This document shows positions 12,958-35,668 of a stretch of DNA of 64,000 bases, piece after piece (positions within the stretch are counted from its first letter, which is position 1; each line of letters begins with the position of its first letter). The position numbers and the translations under genes are program-made. Origin of the DNA: Shigella phage KRT47; the sequence record MN781580. One strand, 5' to 3'. Below the pieces are notes generated by a model. That model was given only the letters and a program-made list of their open reading frames with translations. It did no database searches and was not told where the DNA came from.

Positions 12958-13200
12958 TTATTCCTTAATTCCTAGTACTTGTTTAAAAGTCTCGTCGTAA
13001 TCAAGACTTTGGCCCGTTTGTTCTTTATGTTTGTATATAATATCACTTACTTCTGATAGCATATTTTTATATGAACGAGTTAAAGCAGATTTAAGCACGC
13101 TGTATCTATCAGGAAATTTACTATGTTCATTATAATAAGCTATTGCTAATTCACGGACTGCCTTTTCAGCAGTCTCCATATATTCTTTACGCTTGGTCAT
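12958..13200 (-). CDS. hypothetical protein
   Basis: start at internal Met MTKRKEY (ATG at 13200); N-terminal ORF extension overlaps upstream gene. Confidence 0.5.
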
Positions 13201-13483
13201 TTTCTTCTCGGTCAAATCGGTGTTTACAATGGCGACATTTATAACGAAGATTATTAGTCTGCCAATGGACCAATTGCACCTGTTCAGTTCCACATTCAGG
13301 GCAATTAGGAACGTTTTTAGAAGCCCTTTCGCGACGTTTAACCATAGCCATAATGGCATCCCATGCTGGAGGTTTAAAATCTAAATCGTCAGTAACTAGC
13401 AGTCCTTTATCAAACCCAACGCATGGAGTCCATTCAGGAAAATCTGAAGCTTCGGCAATATCTTCTAATAAACGCTTTTTCAT
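13187..13483 (-). CDS. zinc-ribbon protein
   Basis: 98 aa; CPEC ... CRHC four-cysteine motif. Confidence 0.65.
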
Positions 13484-14406
13484 TTCAGTACCTCAATAGC
13501 ATCACGTAAACCATTTGCTTTGGCGGTTAAAGCCTTAAGAACTTTAGTATGCTCTTCAATTTGTTTTTCAACTTCAATCAAACGGGCACTGAGATATTCG
13601 CGTTCTTCTTTCATAGTATCATTCCCATGATTGGGCTTTGGCGTAGATTTAAATTTACTAGGGTCCTTTAACTTAATAACAACTTTAGTTTCAAACAGTG
13701 AAAGACCATAATTCGTATTATCATCAAAGGATTCAACTACGTCCATTTTAGACAATAACGTGCGAAGATTATAAGTCAAAGAACGAATCGTTTTATTATG
13801 TTTATTAGCTTCACATGGTTTCATATATGGAAGATTTTTATATATTTCATGTGGAGCACAAACAATAATTGACAATTCAAATGGTCCATTCTGTGATGAT
13901 GGAATGAATTTAGCCGTAACCCAATCTTTTACATTTACATTAATAGTACGGTCATCGCCATGACAAAACAGTCTACGAGAATGCTTAAAAAGCATATTCA
14001 CATTATTATTAAATTCATGTGAAAACTCACTAGCAAATTTTTCTTTACTATTTTTAGAAAACCATTCTTCTAAATAAGTTCTTTTCACGTCATTAATAAT
14101 ATTAAATGTAACAACATTAGCATTTGATACATTAGTCTCAATGTAGCTTGGATACATAAATTTTTTAACATTATTAACAGCTATCACAGAAGATAGTAAT
14201 CGGGAACGTTTGAACCACTCGAGCAAAGAACCAAGAGAATGTGAATACGCATTTTGTGTATCTTTACAAATATGGTTTTCCCATCCAATATAGTCTAAAA
14301 AATCACGAAGAATATTATTGATTACTGCTCTGTGTCCTATCTGATAATTACGATGTTTAGTAATAAGACTGTCAAAATAATCAATATAATGTTTACGAGT
14401 TTTCAT
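13480..14406 (-). CDS. hypothetical protein with C-terminal coiled coil (tandem set member 4)
   Basis: 308 aa; last 40 residues heptad-like and K/E-rich. Confidence 0.7.
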   Translation of the reverse strand: MKTRKHYIDYFDSLITKHRNYQIGHRAVINNILRDFLDYIGWENHICKDTQNAYSHSLGSLLEWFKRSRLLSSVIAVNNVKKFMYPSYIETNVSNANVVTFNIINDVKRTYLEEWFSKNSKEKFASEFSHEFNNNVNMLFKHSRRLFCHGDDRTINVNVKDWVTAKFIPSSQNGPFELSIIVCAPHEIYKNLPYMKPCEANKHNKTIRSLTYNLRTLLSKMDVVESFDDNTNYGLSLFETKVVIKLKDPSKFKSTPKPNHGNDTMKEEREYLSARLIEVEKQIEEHTKVLKALTAKANGLRDAIEVLK

Positions 14407-14458
14407 GTTCTTCTCACTTGGTTAATGGTTTATACTCCGAGCCATCCTTGGCTTTAAA

Positions 14459-15460
14459 TTACTTAATTAACTGTAAAGCTTGTTCAAGACGATCAAGACG
14501 ATTAACGGATTCTTCCCAAATCTTTTTAGCCTGCTCATATTCTTTCTGCGCTTTATTAGAAATTTCTAGAACTTCTTTATAAGCTTTTTCTAATGCAATA
14601 ACTTCTGGACGAATTTCTATCGGTTCAGGTGAATCATCAAGACATTCCATTAGTTCCTCAAGAGTAGTTTCTTCTTTAGGAGTATTCACAATTTCCTCAC
14701 ATTTTTGTTGATAAATTTCTTTATCAGTAGGTGAATAAGCACATTTCACTTCACGAAGACTAATTACAATTTTATATCCTTCCCATCCGCATATATTCTT
14801 AAAAGGATATGTATGAATATTTTCTACTGTTTCCATACAAAGTAATGCAGTCTCTAACTGACGAGTTATAGTGCTAGCAATTGAGAAAAATTTATTAATA
14901 TTCTTTTGGTTAGCGTTTGGTGTAAAAAATCCATAATTCACAAAAATAGCTACTTTATTTTCATCAAGCTCATATTCTTTTACGATAATCATATCAGAAG
15001 CCAAAGGATGAATTTGACGATAATCGCCATAACATAATTTAGAAGCTGATTTTAGAATTTGTCCTTTGAAAAGTCTGAAATTACTAATCCAACGACGAGT
15101 AAAAATATTCTCAGGGTCTTCTTTATTATTAAGATGATAAGAATTAACATCACCGAACCAATTATATCCTACTACATCTTTAGTTCGTTTAATTTCTTTC
15201 CCAAAATTACCAAGAATATCCCGATTAACCAAATATGAAAGAAGACGAGACTCTTTAAAGGTTTTCTTGATATTATCTTTATCTACACGGCTAGAAATTT
15301 TACGAATTTCATGAATAAATTTAGTAGAAGAAACAATACTTGCATCAACACTATTGAGCCATTGATTGATAATGGAAAGAACGATATTTTGACCAAACAT
15401 CGGTATAGCTTTATCATCAATAACGCTATTGAATGATTTGATATATTCGTTACGAGTCAT
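14459..15460 (-). CDS. hypothetical protein with C-terminal coiled coil (tandem set member 3)
   Basis: start set to MTRNEYIKS Met at 15460, preceded by GAGGAG RBS and an early promoter. Confidence 0.7.
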   Translation of the reverse strand: MTRNEYIKSFNSVIDDKAIPMFGQNIVLSIINQWLNSVDASIVSSTKFIHEIRKISSRVDKDNIKKTFKESRLLSYLVNRDILGNFGKEIKRTKDVVGYNWFGDVNSYHLNNKEDPENIFTRRWISNFRLFKGQILKSASKLCYGDYRQIHPLASDMIIVKEYELDENKVAIFVNYGFFTPNANQKNINKFFSIASTITRQLETALLCMETVENIHTYPFKNICGWEGYKIVISLREVKCAYSPTDKEIYQQKCEEIVNTPKEETTLEELMECLDDSPEPIEIRPEVIALEKAYKEVLEISNKAQKEYEQAKKIWEESVNRLDRLEQALQLIK

Positions 15461-15488
15461 ATTAATCTCCTCAGTAGAAAGTAAGAAC

Positions 15489-15518
15489 ATTATACCACAT
15501 CCTTGTGGCAAAGTAAAC
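15489..15518 (-). promoter_or_regulatory. early (sigma70-type) promoter
   Basis: minus strand GTTTAC, 18 nt, TATAAT. Confidence 0.65.
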
Positions 15519-16537
15519 TAGTTCAGTGCATTTAGTGCATTGTTCAGTTTAGAACGTTGCTTCGTGAGATTTTTGACTTTTTCTTGTGCTTTTTCTAGCA
15601 TCTTTTCAGCTTCTAACACTTCATTGGTCGCTTTAACGAGTTCATCATCTACTGCCTTAAGGGACTTCTCAATCGCATCCGCGTGCCATTTTTCAACAGG
15701 TTTAAGACTCGGATTTTCAATAGGAAGAAAATTCACTTTATTGAATTTCCATGCATCTTTATTACCTGAACTATACATCCAAAATTTAGGATCATTTGAC
15801 GAGTAATTAGATAAATTTAAGTTATCTTGCACTTCCTGCTTTTTCTCTTGCGGGACTTCGTCCTTTCTCAAAAAATCGTATTTAAATGAAACGATCATAT
15901 CAAGTTCATATGATGTTGTATCTAACTTAAATCGTTCAAAACGAGGTAAAATCTTAGATTGAACAGCAGCAACAACATCCATATACTTAAATGCTTCTGT
16001 CAACTGTGATTTAAGACATTCACAAATTGAAAGAGAATTTTTAGTATTAGGCTTAAAGCTGATTCGCGCAGTTCGATTATTTTCTTTAGATGGTCTTACT
16101 TCCATTTGAAGAGTATAACCATCAAATTTCAGATTCTTTAAGTTAATATCAGAACCTTTTAATCGACTAGCCGTAGACAAAATTTGCTTTAATTGTTTAC
16201 GGAATAAAGCAATAAATCTCCATTCAAGACGATAATGATTTGGATTATAAAATCCCGTTGATAGATCAACTTTACTTTGACCAACGCCTTGAACAAGTAG
16301 AGGATTTTTATAATCAACAGTTTTACAGAAATCCATGAGCTGTTCACGGGCAGTCATTTGCGTAATATATCCAGCTTTATCAAAATGCCGCAACCATTCA
16401 GCGCTATTCAATGAGTTAAAGTGAATATTACGTGTAACTTTATCAGGGTCTAAATTATTTTCACATAAAAATGTTATGACATTACGAGTATAACTAGCAT
16501 TACGAACCATATCTTCAATTTGAGAACGAGTTTTCAT
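15518..16537 (-). CDS. hypothetical protein with C-terminal coiled coil (tandem set member 2)
   Basis: 339 aa; C-terminal EVLEAEKMLEKAQEKVKNLTKQRSKL. Confidence 0.7.
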   Translation of the reverse strand: MKTRSQIEDMVRNASYTRNVITFLCENNLDPDKVTRNIHFNSLNSAEWLRHFDKAGYITQMTAREQLMDFCKTVDYKNPLLVQGVGQSKVDLSTGFYNPNHYRLEWRFIALFRKQLKQILSTASRLKGSDINLKNLKFDGYTLQMEVRPSKENNRTARISFKPNTKNSLSICECLKSQLTEAFKYMDVVAAVQSKILPRFERFKLDTTSYELDMIVSFKYDFLRKDEVPQEKKQEVQDNLNLSNYSSNDPKFWMYSSGNKDAWKFNKVNFLPIENPSLKPVEKWHADAIEKSLKAVDDELVKATNEVLEAEKMLEKAQEKVKNLTKQRSKLNNALNALN

Positions 16538-16545
16538 AGTATTCC

Positions 16546-17469
16546 TTAAAATTTAAGTAAATCGATAATTTTAATTAAATTTTCACGCTCAGATTTAGCT
16601 TTACTGCTTAATCCAGACAATCTAAAAATTTCATCATCGTATTGCTGAATAGAAATATTTAGCTCTTCTATTTGTTTACTGAAATAATCAATCTGCTCGG
16701 AATATTTTTCATTACTACGAACTGGAACGGGTTTTGTTGGCAAGTCAATCTTATTCTCATTGACTTCAACCGGACGATAAATTAAAATACAATTTGAACC
16801 AATTGGGCATTTTGCTCCAGATACATATTCTAGTGTTCCGGCTTTCTTTAAAACCTCAAAAGCTAAGCATAGATGGTATCCCATATTAGCATAATCGGTT
16901 GAATGCGCCCTGATGTAATAATCATCTTGACGAATACTAAACTTGAAGCATTTAAGTTCTTCTGTATTATTCGTTTTAAAGATCATTTGTTTATCTAGGC
17001 CTGTAGCTAATCGAGCTCCTAATGCCAACAATCGACGCTGATTTTCCCACAAATCAGTAATCATTTGATCAAATGATAGTTTTGGCATTGGACGACCGTA
17101 AAGATCATAGCCTTTGTTATAATTGCGAAGAATTTCACTTGCATTAATACGTGATAACGCTCCAATTTTATTAAGCGCTTTCATAATACGATTAGACCAC
17201 CCCATCCCAGACCCATTAGTTCGTCGCAAGTGTTTTTCTAATCTAAAGCCAATATCAATATTAAACGTATCTAAAATTTCATTACGAACATCTTGTTCAA
17301 TGATACTAAAATTAAATGTTGGGTTAAGTCTATAAAAGAGCTGATCTGCTTTATCGTGATTAAGTACAGTCCATTCATTTAATTTTTTATTAACTAAAGA
17401 TTTAATTACTGCATTAACATTATTAATTATTACTGACATATTATTTTCCTCACTCAATTTCGGTTTCAA
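16546..17469 (-). CDS. hypothetical protein with C-terminal coiled coil (tandem set member 1)
   Basis: 307 aa; C-terminal heptad-like tail. Confidence 0.7.
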   Translation of the reverse strand: MKPKLSEENNMSVIINNVNAVIKSLVNKKLNEWTVLNHDKADQLFYRLNPTFNFSIIEQDVRNEILDTFNIDIGFRLEKHLRRTNGSGMGWSNRIMKALNKIGALSRINASEILRNYNKGYDLYGRPMPKLSFDQMITDLWENQRRLLALGARLATGLDKQMIFKTNNTEELKCFKFSIRQDDYYIRAHSTDYANMGYHLCLAFEVLKKAGTLEYVSGAKCPIGSNCILIYRPVEVNENKIDLPTKPVPVRSNEKYSEQIDYFSKQIEELNISIQQYDDEIFRLSGLSSKAKSERENLIKIIDLLKF

Positions 17470-17863
17470 TTAATTTTGCTAGTCTAAATATAATATAACA
17501 ACAAATATAAGCACCACACACAGATTGAACTAATACCATTCCAAAGAACCAAACAATATTATCAAACAATGTCTGTTTTACGTCGAAAGGACGTAAACTT
17601 ACAGTAATATTATCGCCTTTTTCTATTGATGAATACATCTCTGGTGAAATATATTCGCTAAATCTATAACCGTCTTTGAGTTCATATACAGCAATAAACG
17701 ATAAACTAGACCCCTTTCCTTGAGTTCCTGTAAGGGTATTAACTACAGTAACATCATAATCTTTATAATGCATATAATCATTAATTGCGTAATAACCATA
17801 TGCAACTACTACACATAAACAGCATATCAATAAATTCAATCTTTTAATTATCAACTGTTTCAT
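17450..17863 (-). CDS. membrane protein
   Basis: 137 aa; hydrophobic segments at both termini. Confidence 0.65.
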   Translation of the reverse strand: MKQLIIKRLNLLICCLCVVVAYGYYAINDYMHYKDYDVTVVNTLTGTQGKGSSLSFIAVYELKDGYRFSEYISPEMYSSIEKGDNITVSLRPFDVKQTLFDNIVWFFGMVLVQSVCGAYICCYIIFRLAKLIETEIE

Positions 17864-17918
17864 AATAATCTCAATTAAAAGGGCTTAGAACCATTATACC
17901 ATCCTTGGTATAAAGCGG

Positions 17919-18446
17919 TTATGCGAGTACCGTCTTTAACCGTTCTTCAAATTTCCGAAGAGTGTTCTGGCGTTCAGCTCTTTGCTTTTTGTAAGTTTCA
18001 ATACGCTCTGAAATGAGAGTGTATCGTTCATTTACTGATTCTTTCATAAAATCAGGAATTTCACGAGAAGCTTTAATCTCGTCAAATTTATCAATAACTG
18101 CTTGCTCTTCAGCAATTAAGTTATCATACATCAAAATATCCTTTTTGATGAACTCAATATCTTCTTGAGTTACACGAGATAATTTAGATGCTTTATCCTT
18201 TTTGTACTGTTCGTTAGTATCACGAGACCAGTGTAATGTACGATTTTTATTCGTATTCTTGTAAATTTCTACAATACCAATCTCATCGATAATAACGATC
18301 CAATTCCAACGAGATTTGTAAATTTGTCCTCCGTCAACCGTGATTTCACCTCCGATTGAGATGTCATTAAAGAACTTGCTTTGTGCTTCAGATTTAAATT
18401 TACCATCATTGTAGTTTACCAAGTTGAAAATATCTTTAGCATTCAT
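17919..18446 (-). CDS. hypothetical protein
   Basis: start set to MNAKDIF Met at 18446, which follows the promoter and GGAGGAAC RBS. Confidence 0.65.
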   Translation of the reverse strand: MNAKDIFNLVNYNDGKFKSEAQSKFFNDISIGGEITVDGGQIYKSRWNWIVIIDEIGIVEIYKNTNKNRTLHWSRDTNEQYKKDKASKLSRVTQEDIEFIKKDILMYDNLIAEEQAVIDKFDEIKASREIPDFMKESVNERYTLISERIETYKKQRAERQNTLRKFEERLKTVLA

Positions 18447-18473
18447 TTTTGTTCCTCCGTAGTTGATAGTTGT

Positions 18474-18503
18474 ATAGTACCACAGAGGAATGGTCTTGTA
18501 AAC
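18474..18503 (-). promoter_or_regulatory. early promoter within a repeated cassette
   Basis: minus strand GTTTAC, 18 nt, TACTAT; flanked by conserved ACAACTATCAACT. Confidence 0.65.
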
Positions 18504-18505
18504 CA

Positions 18506-18820
18506 CTAAAAGAAACTTCTTTCACAATTTTTTCCACTGAACCAAGCGCTCACTGCTTTCTTAGTCTCAGGAGCAGTGTTATCCATAAACCATTCAAAAG
18601 CAGCCTTTTTATGATTCTGGAGGGCTTCTCGGGCTTTAATCTGCTCACGGTCTATTAACACTAACATATGAGCCTTTCTTGTCACCAAGGGCTTCTTATG
18701 ATTCTTGGAGTATTCCCAGTCATTTGTCCAACGCATTGTCGTTGCGAACTGATGAACCGCGTCTTTAATTTTAGTTTCGTAAATTTCACGAGCCTTTGAG
18801 TATAACATCACTACCTCCAT
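18506..18820 (-). CDS. hypothetical protein
   Basis: 104-aa ORF. Confidence 0.6.
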   Translation of the reverse strand: MEVVMLYSKAREIYETKIKDAVHQFATTMRWTNDWEYSKNHKKPLVTRKAHMLVLIDREQIKAREALQNHKKAAFEWFMDNTAPETKKAVSAWFSGKNCERSFF

Positions 18821-18909
18821 TTACCAGTTTAATTCTAGTCATCTTTTTGATGGCAGTCCATATAATCTATTTCTGAACTGCCTTTTTATCTTAGAAGGCC
18901 TCTTATGAA

Positions 18910-19878
18910 TTATTTCAGAAGAGTAACCTCAGCGATTTCTTCCCAACCGTTTTTGTCGGTCATAATAAAGTCAGCAAGATAAAGAGCAGTACGCAGTGAA
19001 ACATTGCGTAAACGATTAACATTGACTTTCATCCATGATAATGCTTTATAAGTTTCTTCATCAGAAAGACCGCGCTTTTGCATCATGTCAGTTGAAAGAA
19101 TAACATCTTCAACCCTGACCATAATTTCTTCATTAGTGTGAACACCCAAATCCAAATAAACTGAGCGGGACACTAATGCTTGTAAGTGTGGGGCAAGTTT
19201 AGTACCACGGTCTAATTCGCGGTCAATGTCAACGTTTGTGATAAAAACAATCGTTCCTTTAAATTCAAACTCACGCTCAATGCCTTTTTCTTCTAAGTAA
19301 GAAGATGCAGTGCTCCAGCAGACTTTGCGGGTCTCTCCGGTGTCCAGAGCAGCTTTCAGAAGATTAAGAATGTCCATATCAGAGAAAACATCCACATCAT
19401 CAATCAAAAGGACAGAATTCTCTTCACGATTATTCCAAAGCTGCTCATAAAGACCGATACCAGAGATTTTACCGTTAATGCTTTTATACTCAATGTATCC
19501 AATATCATTTGCTTTATTTAAAGCTTTATCTAAAGAATACGTTTTACCAATACCTGCTGCTCCCGAGATAATTAATGAACGAATGTTTCCGTTAATAATA
19601 CCATTCGTCATCATTCCCATAACATTAAATCTTTTATTAATGCGGGTTTTCATATCTTCATATGATTCTTTAACTTCTTCAACTTTTACACCATCATATG
19701 AAATGTCTGATTTGTAAACCCAAACACCGCGACGTTTACCGTCAATTTCAACAAAAACTTTACCATCTCCTTGTGCATCTACTGGAGCATTATCTGGGAA
19801 CCATTCGCCTAAGAGCTCAAAAGTTCCAGAGATTTCTTTACCGAAGTAGATACCCTTATTGATAGTTACAGTTTTCAT
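18910..19878 (-). CDS. P-loop NTPase (AAA-like ATPase)
   Basis: Walker A SGAAGIGKTYS and Walker B-like VLLIDDVD; start set to MKTVTINKG Met at 19878 after promoter/RBS. Confidence 0.7.
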   Translation of the reverse strand: MKTVTINKGIYFGKEISGTFELLGEWFPDNAPVDAQGDGKVFVEIDGKRRGVWVYKSDISYDGVKVEEVKESYEDMKTRINKRFNVMGMMTNGIINGNIRSLIISGAAGIGKTYSLDKALNKANDIGYIEYKSINGKISGIGLYEQLWNNREENSVLLIDDVDVFSDMDILNLLKAALDTGETRKVCWSTASSYLEEKGIEREFEFKGTIVFITNVDIDRELDRGTKLAPHLQALVSRSVYLDLGVHTNEEIMVRVEDVILSTDMMQKRGLSDEETYKALSWMKVNVNRLRNVSLRTALYLADFIMTDKNGWEEIAEVTLLK

Positions 19879-19912
19879 TTTATTCTCCAAATCCGTATCA
19901 GTTGATAGTTGT

Positions 19913-19942
19913 ATAGTACCATAAAGCTTTATGCTTGTAAAC
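19913..19942 (-). promoter_or_regulatory. early promoter within a repeated cassette
   Basis: minus strand GTTTAC, 18 nt, TACTAT. Confidence 0.65.
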
Positions 19943-19973
19943 AACTTTGTGAAAAATTTTTGAAATAAAAAAA

Positions 19974-19991
19974 GGGAGCCCGAAGGCTCCC
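19974..19991 (-). terminator. intrinsic terminator
   Basis: gggagcc-cgaa-ggctccc hairpin followed by a U-run on the minus strand, right after the stop of ORF 19994..21007. Confidence 0.65.
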
Positions 19992-19993
19992 TA

Positions 19994-21007
19994 TCATTTA
20001 TAATAACTTCGGTGGTTTTCAAGATAAACCTTCTCAAGGAAGTCATCCCAGAAACTCATGTCTACTTTTTGCTGCATACCGTTCTTAGAAGCTTCAGTAG
20101 ATGCTGCTTCTACTTGATCAACCACATCTTCCAAAAACTCTTGAACCGTTTTAAATGGATGTTTACCTAACTTCACGTCGAGAATAAAGGGAGCATCTTT
20201 GAGTGGATAAATCAAGTCGCCAGTTTTGTAAATTTCCAATAGTTGAAGTCCACCACGACAAGCATGACTCAGAGCTTTCCAATCAATACCTTCATTAGCT
20301 TCGGCTTTACGAGCACGTTCACCATATTCAGCATCTAATTTGTTCAGTGACTGCTTAAGCTCAATAAGAGAAAGCGTTGTCTGATATTTACGACCCAATA
20401 CAGTGTAGAACGTTTGTGGACCTGTTTTCTCATGATTATGGAACACCCATTCACAGAATTCGTTTTCTGGAAGACGATGCTTAATATCTTCAACTTTAGT
20501 GCGACGCTGCTTAATAGAACCATCTTCTTGGTAATCAACCCATTGCTCAGGGATTTGATTAACTACTTTCAATACATCGCGTAATGCAGCCAAACGAGAA
20601 CCCTTGACACCGTATTTAGAAGCTTGCTTGCGAACATATCCTAAATAGGATTTCATGTTAGTCGTATAAAAACGAGAACGGTTGTCTTGAATAAACTTCC
20701 ACACGTCAGGCAAATCAGATTTAACCACTAGTTCAGGTGGAGTGTGAAGCATATCCAATGCTACAGTTTCACCATCTGCTGCTAATTTAAAGAAATATTT
20801 AAGACTGTATAGTTCATGGTCAATATCATCTTTAGTGTTTTTAGATGATGTGTTATTAGTGTTTTTACTCATGTGCTCTTTGACATTTCCGATAAGAATA
20901 TCACGAGCAGGAGGAACAAAAATTTCTTTAAAATCTACATCAGATTCTGGGGTAGAAGTTCCATAAAGATGACTACCAAAATAGCTTTTCATTACTGTTT
21001 TCATCAT
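19994..21007 (-). CDS. nucleotidyltransferase-fold protein (pol-beta/CD-NTase-like motif)
   Basis: 337 aa; N-terminal GS-x10-DVD motif (YFGSHLYGTSTPESDVDF) and a later acidic DDIDHE segment. Confidence 0.7.
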   Translation of the reverse strand: MMKTVMKSYFGSHLYGTSTPESDVDFKEIFVPPARDILIGNVKEHMSKNTNNTSSKNTKDDIDHELYSLKYFFKLAADGETVALDMLHTPPELVVKSDLPDVWKFIQDNRSRFYTTNMKSYLGYVRKQASKYGVKGSRLAALRDVLKVVNQIPEQWVDYQEDGSIKQRRTKVEDIKHRLPENEFCEWVFHNHEKTGPQTFYTVLGRKYQTTLSLIELKQSLNKLDAEYGERARKAEANEGIDWKALSHACRGGLQLLEIYKTGDLIYPLKDAPFILDVKLGKHPFKTVQEFLEDVVDQVEAASTEASKNGMQQKVDMSFWDDFLEKVYLENHRSYYK

Positions 21008-35104: not shown

Positions 35105-35668
35105 TTATTTATCTAGTTTAGTTATTATAGCTTCTGCGGCAGCTTTTAGCTTAGATGCGGTGTTAATACGATTTTTAATTTCAGTATACGCATCGCCAAG
35201 AACATCAAGGCTATCAGAATAAACACTTACACTATTGCGTTCGCTATTTGAAATAGAACCTTTAGTTTTACGATCAAAATCGGTGTACACGTCTTGAAGA
35301 TCACGGGCTGCCTTCTTTGCATCATCCAATGCATCAAGAGCTTTATTCAAAGCATTAACGTATTTTTTAGTGTCGAACATATTCTTAGAAATTTTAACAG
35401 GTGCGCGTTCAGGAGTAGCTAACACAGATTTAGGAACCTGAGCGCCAGATGCCAATTTCTTAGAAATTTTGAAAAATGCTTTGTTGAATTTATTTTCTTG
35501 ACTCATTGTAAAAGAACTATTATCGATGTTGTACATTTCAATAGCTTTAGCTTTCCACTTAAGAAAATCGCCGCGGTCTTTTGGGTCCAAGTGGAAAAAT
35601 ACTTTAGTAAGATCTGCTTCAGATGGTAATTTTGCTGCTTCGGTTAAAAATTCGGCATAGGTTTTCAT
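35105..35668 (-). CDS. internal-protein-like gene with capsid-targeting sequence
   Basis: 187 aa; N-terminus MKTYAEFLTEAAK. Confidence 0.7.
   Translation of the reverse strand: MKTYAEFLTEAAKLPSEADLTKVFFHLDPKDRGDFLKWKAKAIEMYNIDNSSFTMSQENKFNKAFFKISKKLASGAQVPKSVLATPERAPVKISKNMFDTKKYVNALNKALDALDDAKKAARDLQDVYTDFDRKTKGSISNSERNSVSVYSDSLDVLGDAYTEIKNRINTASKLKAAAEAIITKLDK

Follow-up and report, generated by a model that had tools for sequence, protein, structure and literature searches.

The nrdC.3 to nrdC.6 array of Shigella phage KRT47: probable paralogs with coiled-coil tails and a possible role against host defences

Described counter-defence genes and the nrdC.3 to nrdC.6 locus

About half of the genes of T4, the best-studied phage, have no known function. 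For nrdC.5 of this phage a phenotype has been described: a T4 clone lacking some accessory genes does not infect E. coli ECOR17, owing to the SIR2-domain defence protein Dsr1, and plasmid-borne T4 nrdC.5 supplied in trans restores infection and plating on MG1655 carrying ECOR17 dsr1 (Srikant, Guegler and Laub, eLife 2022, PMC9391042). There, nrdC.5 is termed an early gene and is treated as a single uncharacterised gene, without a paralog family, a body-linker-tail layout or a mechanism, and the effect on Dsr1 is that of the T4 protein (PMC9391042). Here we analysed 64,000 nucleotides of Shigella phage KRT47 (MN781580), referred to below as the window, in which the open reading frame (ORF) 15518-16537 is the orthologue of T4 NrdC.5 (DUF7235, PF23882) at the same position of the array, and the products of the other three genes, nrdC.3, nrdC.4 and nrdC.6, are its probable distant paralogs. 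That the four genes form one paralogous family with a body-linker-tail architecture is, in our assessment, very likely.

Several described systems resemble this array in part. The T4 proteins Ip1, Ip2 and Ip3 each inhibit their own GmrSD variant (PMC12373910). They are like the array in providing a phage with several dispensable and variable (candidate, in the case of the array) inhibitors whose presence or absence varies among T-even phages. The Ip proteins are small, are injected with the DNA by means of an N-terminal capsid-targeting sequence and are apparently non-homologous (PMC12373910), whereas NrdC.3 to NrdC.6 are about 300 amino acids (aa) long, paralogous, apparently made early in infection and equipped with coiled-coil tails. 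The T4 anti-toxin-antitoxin island of dmd, tifA and adfA likewise consists of adjacent early accessory genes that counter different host defences and whose homologues vary (PMC9391042). Its three products are small and mutually unrelated, while the nrdC.3 to nrdC.6 array would have arisen from one duplicated gene. A further comparison is offered by DSAD1, a phage protein reported by Garb et al. in 2022 to inhibit DSR2, a SIR2 defence protein, by direct binding. DSAD1 and NrdC.5 are alike as phage proteins that neutralise an NAD-depleting defence with a SIR2 domain, but they differ in phage lineage and in target (DSR2, not Dsr1), and no sequence or fold similarity was detected between NrdC.5 and any solved chain.

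The window belongs to a T4-like phage of the genus Tequatrovirus that is distinct from T4, the best phage record over 13000-18000 being 94% identical. ORFs for endonuclease VII, Pin and NrdC flank the array. The four ORFs exist on the minus strand and are similar in size, as a preliminary description of this DNA had stated, with products of 308, 333, 339 and 297 aa. Their coordinates and parts are the following:

13480-14406, minus strand: nrdC.3 orthologue, 308 aa, 96% aa identity to T4 NrdC.3; body 1-245 (13672-14406), linker 246-262 (13621-13671), heptad tail 263-308 (13483-13620)
14459-15460, minus strand: nrdC.4 orthologue, 333 aa, 97% aa identity to T4 NrdC.4; body 1-245 (14726-15460), linker 246-285 (14606-14725), heptad tail 286-333 (14462-14605)
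15518-16537, minus strand: nrdC.5 orthologue, between nrdC.6 and nrdC.4, 339 aa, 91% full-length identity to T4 NrdC.5; body 1-224 (15866-16537), disordered linker 225-280 (15698-15865), single long helix and heptad tail 281-339 (15521-15697)
16546-17439, minus strand: nrdC.6 orthologue, 297 aa, 82% identity to T4 NrdC.6 over 260 aa; body 1-222 (16774-17439), linker 223-243 (16711-16773), tail helices 244-297 (16549-16710)

The start of nrdC.6 given here replaces the one proposed previously, a TTG codon at 17469, which overlaps the end of nrdC.7. The gene most likely begins at the ATG at 17439, giving 297 aa, since this codon has a GAGG ribosome-binding site and the same start is used in annotated homologues and in P0145, a metagenomic protein of 297 aa that is 99% identical to the window NrdC.6 and begins at the equivalent ATG. 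Two of the proteins, NrdC.3 and NrdC.5, do start with MKTR, as had been noticed; NrdC.4 starts with MTRNEY.

Relationship of the four bodies

To obtain deeper profiles, orthologues were gathered from 11 and later about 30 T4-like phage loci, together with database homologues. Pairwise BLASTP among the four proteins detected only NrdC.3 against NrdC.4 (E=5e-5), and the first, shallow profiles neither placed NrdC.5 firmly nor placed NrdC.6. With hhalign, NrdC.3 aligned to NrdC.4 at E=3.8e-12, and a merged NrdC.3/4 profile aligned to NrdC.5 at E=3.9e-12 (probability 97.6%) over 230 colinear columns. This second match persisted after removal of linker and tail (E=3.9e-9, 96% probability), with controls at E=0.3-0.8. 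Over all comparisons, the controls gave E=0.05-0.9; they comprised reversed profiles, column-shuffled profiles and three unrelated neighbouring ORFs of 257-269 aa from distant phages, which had been tried as members of the family, rejected and reused as negatives. In the merged alignment, motifs recur in common columns, for example F-K-x-S-R-L-L-S...A...L..F in a helix, h-L...A-S-+-L followed by G-D-D-R, and L..hh..M-D-V-V. These sequence comparisons firmly support the paralogy of NrdC.3, NrdC.4 and NrdC.5.

NrdC.6 is likely a paralog of the other three as well, on the basis of a bridging family from Karamvirus, common structural matches and a common order of structural elements. The Karamvirus family (332 aa, same genomic slot) aligned to NrdC.6 at E=1.5e-6 over 208 colinear columns and to NrdC.3/4 at E=7.9e-6 over the full length; with bodies only, this transitive link for NrdC.6 stood at about E=1.5e-3. 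A single syntenic protein of Jiaodavirus matched NrdC.3/4 and one of Lazarusvirus matched NrdC.5, both at E=4e-6. AlphaFold2 models of NrdC.5 and NrdC.6 display the same elements in the same order, namely a helix pair, two strands, a helix, two strands, the linker and a long helix. Both models match the same uncharacterised T4-like phage proteins in BFVD nearly over their full length (Foldseek, probability 1.00), with the following scores:

Enterobacter phage IME523: NrdC.5 model 1e-8, NrdC.6 model 6e-7
Pectobacterium phage PM2: NrdC.5 model 3e-6, NrdC.6 model 5e-7
Klebsiella phage Mineola: NrdC.5 model 4e-8, NrdC.6 model 4e-4

Two results count against the inclusion of NrdC.6. Its direct hhalign comparison with the other three gave E=0.01-0.06, below significance, so that the link is transitive and structural, and the models of NrdC.5 and NrdC.6 are of moderate confidence (predicted local distance difference test, pLDDT, 67 and 76).

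It is extremely improbable that the four proteins are unrelated and have converged on a C-terminal coiled coil, or that they are structural or SMC-like coiled-coil proteins. Such a reading could draw on sub-threshold Pfam matches (CENP-F, DUF4164, AAA_23), a weak PDB match to SMC and weak Foldseek matches of the NrdC.5 core to tail-completion proteins, but a family of unrelated proteins is contradicted by the body-only hhalign result, the Karamvirus bridge and the clean controls. An SMC/AAA_23-type coiled-coil ATPase was also considered and rejected: AAA_23 matched at E=0.8, CENP-F and DUF4164 fell below their cut-offs, all of these matches lay on the tail only, and the PDB Smc match (E=0.095) covered 39 residues. 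The relationship that had been suspected was thus found by pairwise alignment and profile comparison, and no enzyme family or known fold was matched by any of the four proteins in the sequence and structure searches. An ancestral gene would accordingly have been duplicated into four very diverged tandem paralogs, each with a presumably globular body of about 220-245 residues whose predicted core consists of two helices, two strands, one helix and two strands.

In current databases the members of this family are kept apart. The ORF 15518-16537 matches DUF7235 over residues 1-339 (E=3.1e-120, 402 bits against a cut-off of 30), a model that gave no match to the NrdC.3, NrdC.4 and NrdC.6 ORFs of the window. 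NrdC.3 and NrdC.4 have phrog_1435 in common (E=1e-100 and E=1.5e-169), and NrdC.6 matches phrog_2257 (E=5.9e-133). The Pfam family PF26897 ('Phage_T4_Y04OP') covers T4 NrdC.3 and NrdC.4 and labels the relatives P0056 and P0204, and PF26899, the family of NrdC.6, is the precomputed label of 109 of 109 NrdC.6 homologues; our assignment of window proteins to PF26897 and PF26899 is based on such precomputed labels of relatives and on PHROGs. Pfam thus holds three separate families of unknown function, of which PF26897 already joins two T4 paralogs; here PF26897, PF26899 and DUF7235 are joined into one superfamily, which also takes in the syntenic proteins of Karam-, Jiaoda- and Lazarusvirus. When 1.84 billion representatives were searched exhaustively with the NrdC.5 profile (HMMER), 15 matches were obtained, and the NrdC.3, NrdC.4 and NrdC.6 families were not reached directly. 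The family was seen in T4-like phages (Straboviridae) alone.

The preliminary description had recognised no characterised T4 function in the array, a statement that is out of date for nrdC.5 and overlooks the union of NrdC.3 and NrdC.4 in PF26897. In the searchable library, the literature on nrdC.3, nrdC.4, nrdC.6, DUF7235 or the whole family held nothing past genome announcements. Judged from this library, the activity of NrdC.5 against Dsr1 and the PF26897 grouping are already known, and the superfamily of four genes with members in other genera and the body-linker-tail map appear to be new. In many GenBank records the genes nrdC.1 to nrdC.11 (window 13480-21007) are annotated 'thioredoxin', because the name was propagated from the neighbouring nrdC; a thioredoxin or glutaredoxin identity was rejected, as none of the four proteins had a thioredoxin-family match. 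In Foldseek, the body of the NrdC.5 model weakly matches tail-terminator, head-tail connector and tail-completion proteins of phages, with E=3e-3 to 3e-2.

The coiled-coil tails

The C-terminus of each of the four proteins (297-339 aa) is formed by a heptad helix of about 45-58 residues, ahead of which lies a disordered linker of about 20-55 residues. Scored along its full length, each of the four proteins has its best 35-aa heptad window in the C-terminal tail. The a/d positions of the tails are 83-92% hydrophobic, compared with 17-27% elsewhere (tail-shuffle p<=0.009 for each), and all four proteins rank in the top 6 of the 76 non-overlapping ORFs of the window by heptad score. In the AlphaFold2 model of NrdC.5, a disordered linker of about 55 residues leads into a single 58-residue helix (281-338, pLDDT 83-91); in that of NrdC.6, a linker of about 20 residues is followed by two helices of 30 and 18 residues (244-273 and 279-296). 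Heptad statistics and modelled helices therefore bear out the coiled-coil-type ends described earlier. The idea that the tail is common to all four holds in part: heptad character and a loose terminal L...h.hhK pattern are common, but the sequence is not, each tail being specific to its paralog, with 1-10 identities between paralogs in the last 35 residues.

Within each paralog, the tail is usually better conserved than the body:

NrdC.3 across genera: tail identity 80%, body 60%
NrdC.4 across genera: tail identity 65%, body 40%
NrdC.6 across genera: tail identity 70%, body 35%
NrdC.5 against P0057: tail identity 63%, body 38%

In Tequatrovirus, the ratio of non-synonymous to synonymous substitution rates (dN/dS) of NrdC.4 is 0.05 for the tail and 0.22 for the body. 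The better conservation of the tails and this low tail value argue that purifying selection keeps each paralog's own tail, which fits either specific self-association or a specific conserved partner.

Other proteins with or without such tails are encoded nearby. NrdC.7 is a membrane protein without a heptad tail. NrdC.8 (17919-18446, minus strand, 175 aa), two genes upstream of the array, has a significant heptad tail; it was considered as a fifth member and discarded because its comparison with the four paralogs gave hhalign E=0.04-0.15, and its sequence is highly conserved (dN/dS 0.02). The sole other ORF among the 76 with a comparable C-terminal heptad score is located at 35105-35668 on the minus strand (187 aa, phrog_2280, unknown function). 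In the T4 reference, NrdC.6 (275 aa; NC_000866, 10067-10894) is frameshifted just ahead of the coiled-coil tail. The resequenced T4 derivative T4_583L (MZ375356) differs from this reference by three indels in 951 nt and has an intact NrdC.6 tail; the reference annotation probably reflects a sequencing artefact or a strain-specific lesion.

Variation of the array and its possible function

The evolutionary rate was analysed on about 16 Tequatrovirus arrays, because scans of viral contigs gave 4 and 5 loci. The non-synonymous rate (dN) and dN/dS were as follows:

nrdC.2 to nrdC.7: dN 0.03-0.16, dN/dS 0.14-0.29
gp49, nrdC and nrdC.8 to nrdC.11: dN 0.002-0.011, dN/dS 0.01-0.09

By dN, the array genes evolve 3-15 times faster than the flanking genes. 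NrdC.3 occurs in three discrete allele classes (>=90%, ~61% and ~55%) beside nearly identical flanking genes. The term 'diversifying family' used in the preliminary description is therefore apt for the faster evolution and the replacement of alleles, but not in the sense of gene-wide positive selection (dN/dS 0.14-0.29).

Comparative genomics of T4-like phages showed that copy number as well as alleles differ between phages, as had been anticipated. Tequatrovirus has four copies, and Dhaka-, Gapriver- and Mosigvirus have three; a single copy is found in Karam-, Jiaoda- and Lazarusvirus, as well as on the P0204 contig. Phage ACG-C40 lacks nrdC.3 to nrdC.5, residues 1-68 of NrdC.5 running out of frame into the end of nrdC.3 (locus L009, 5802-6215), and phage Pinarejo has lost nrdC.6 save for its tail (locus L011, 6001-6138). 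These counts bear on the idea that the array encodes a single machine, a hetero-oligomeric complex of all four proteins that is assembled by means of the coiled-coil tails. The genes are adjacent and size-matched and their products have the same architecture, and the conservation of each tail within its paralog could reflect specific tail pairing. We nevertheless consider such a complex very unlikely: one, two or three of the four genes are found in natural phages (ACG-C40, Manna, Pinarejo and Dhaka-, Gapriver- and Mosigvirus), a tail-swapped fusion persists in phage Manna, and nrdC.5 alone on a plasmid rescues, although PMC9391042 is silent on which neighbouring genes the evolved clone had lost and on whether other paralogs were still present.

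The fusion of Salmonella phage Manna (locus L010, 5215-6252) is in frame and places residues 1 to about 270 of NrdC.6 onto the linker and tail of NrdC.4 from about residue 257, with the junction ...QQYDDEI|VNTPKEE...; nrdC.5 and the body of nrdC.4 were deleted by it. P0056, from a metagenomic phage (167-kb contig), is a fusion of NrdC.5 and NrdC.3, and P0204 combines a body of the NrdC.4 type (E=2e-6) with a tail of the NrdC.5 type. In P0089 (173 aa; 803-bp ENA contig ERZ27280904:k141_89665), an unrelated N-terminal body of 118 aa without a phage match is in frame with an NrdC.5 tail, and the break coincides with the beginning of this tail. The DNA of this contig, from about residue 287 of NrdC.5 through the promoter into the start of nrdC.4, is 94% identical to window 15679-15356, and the contig represents either a body replacement or an assembly chimera.

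Because of the Manna fusion, P0204 and the P0089 contig, an exchange of bodies can be envisaged in which the array is modular. The paralog-specific coiled-coil tail would be kept as a platform for oligomerisation or docking, and target-recognition bodies would be swapped onto it by recombination, quickly yielding new oligomeric inhibitors, or decoys, directed at defences of the SIR2 type and others. Bodies might even mimic phage structural proteins that trigger defence, an idea hinted at by the weak Foldseek matches to tail-completion proteins. As a whole, this scenario is speculative and unlikely. If bodies are indeed exchangeable specificity modules, the locus would clearly exemplify how a lytic phage diversifies its counter-defence by duplication and recombination.

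With respect to expression, one gene had been credited with an early promoter of its own, and the sequence ahead of nrdC.4 fits this description:

15467-15518, minus strand: predicted early-type promoter and ribosome-binding site for nrdC.4, between the nrdC.5 stop codon and the nrdC.4 ATG

The putative site consists of a -35 element GTTTACT (15518-15512), a 17-nt spacer, an extended -10 element TGgTATAAT ending at 15489 and GAGGAG at 15472-15467. Across Tequatro-, Gapriver- and Dhakavirus, its hexamers do not vary, nor does the ribosome-binding site, while the spacer diverges, which argues that the promoter-like site is functional. Promoter-like sites in the region overall occur at chance level (32 compared with 31.3 in shuffles), and our claim is therefore limited to the conserved site between nrdC.5 and nrdC.4.

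The explanation that we favour, and hold to be somewhat more probable than all others together, is that the array consists of early, dispensable paralogs with a target-reading body and an oligomerising tail, each of which inhibits, stoichiometrically, its own host immunity protein or its own variant of such a protein. Besides the paralogy and the tails, the modular make-up seen in the Manna fusion, P0204 and the P0089 contig and the accessory character of the genes speak for it. The genes are dispensable and lie on the early-gene strand, with the conserved early-type promoter ahead of nrdC.4. The fast-evolving body may recognise its target by direct binding, and the coiled-coil tail may form a homo-oligomer that adds avidity against oligomeric defence proteins. 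NrdC.5 acting against the SIR2-type NADase Dsr1 would be the known example. The earlier suggestion of inhibitors or host-takeover factors matches, for this one member, the published anti-Dsr1 effect of T4 nrdC.5; for NrdC.3, NrdC.4 and NrdC.6, we infer an anti-defence role.

Several points weigh against inhibition of host immunity as the common function. An experimental phenotype exists for one of the four genes (nrdC.5), and it may arise by direct binding or by some other mechanism. None of the proteins had a significant match to models of known defence or anti-defence proteins or to solved structures. Gene-wide positive selection was not detected in the roughly 16 arrays, dN/dS being <0.3 for all four genes. 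Oligomerisation through the tail is likewise something that we infer, and the conservation of the tails could reflect binding to a conserved partner instead of self-association.

Alternatively, the paralogs could serve early in host takeover or regulation, with housekeeping machinery of the host (metabolism, transcription, proteolysis) instead of immunity proteins as their target and an indirect effect of nrdC.5 on Dsr1, for example by preventing the signal that triggers it. Their early region adjoins pin, which encodes a Lon protease inhibitor, and nucleotide-metabolism genes, the published nrdC.5 effect would allow an indirect mechanism, and dN/dS <0.3 suggests mainly purifying selection. 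However, the genes are dispensable, natural phages have frequently lost or replaced them, their evolution is much faster than that of the neighbouring core genes, and a family found in T4-like phages only, with a copy number that depends on the genus, is more typical of arms-race loci. Moreover, the sole recorded phenotype is relief from a defence system. We therefore regard host takeover as unlikely and retain inhibition of host immunity proteins as the preferred explanation. With a Dsr1-countering gene placed in an array of four members, whose relatives occupy this locus throughout T4-like phages, three T4 genes so far labelled 'hypothetical' become specific and testable anti-defence candidates, and the domain map of variable body, linker and paralog-specific coiled-coil tail can guide the design of truncations and tail swaps as well as structure prediction with Dsr1.

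Further variation was seen in and around the array. The neighbouring nrdC.2 (13187-13483, minus strand) encodes 98 aa with a zinc-ribbon-like CPEC...CRHC pair, and its start overlaps the nrdC.3 stop in ATGA. The two genes vary jointly between phages (minimum identity 58% for nrdC.2 and 60% for nrdC.3), which suggests a two-gene allelic module. In Dhaka- and Gaprivervirus (loci L004, L006 and L008; for example L008 6665-6880), an ORF of 71 aa that is absent from the window lies between nrdC.6 and nrdC.5. In RB69, nrdC.7 is relocated next to nrdC, and in RB9 and phage 132 a homing-endonuclease-like gene is found between nrdC.9 and nrdC.10.

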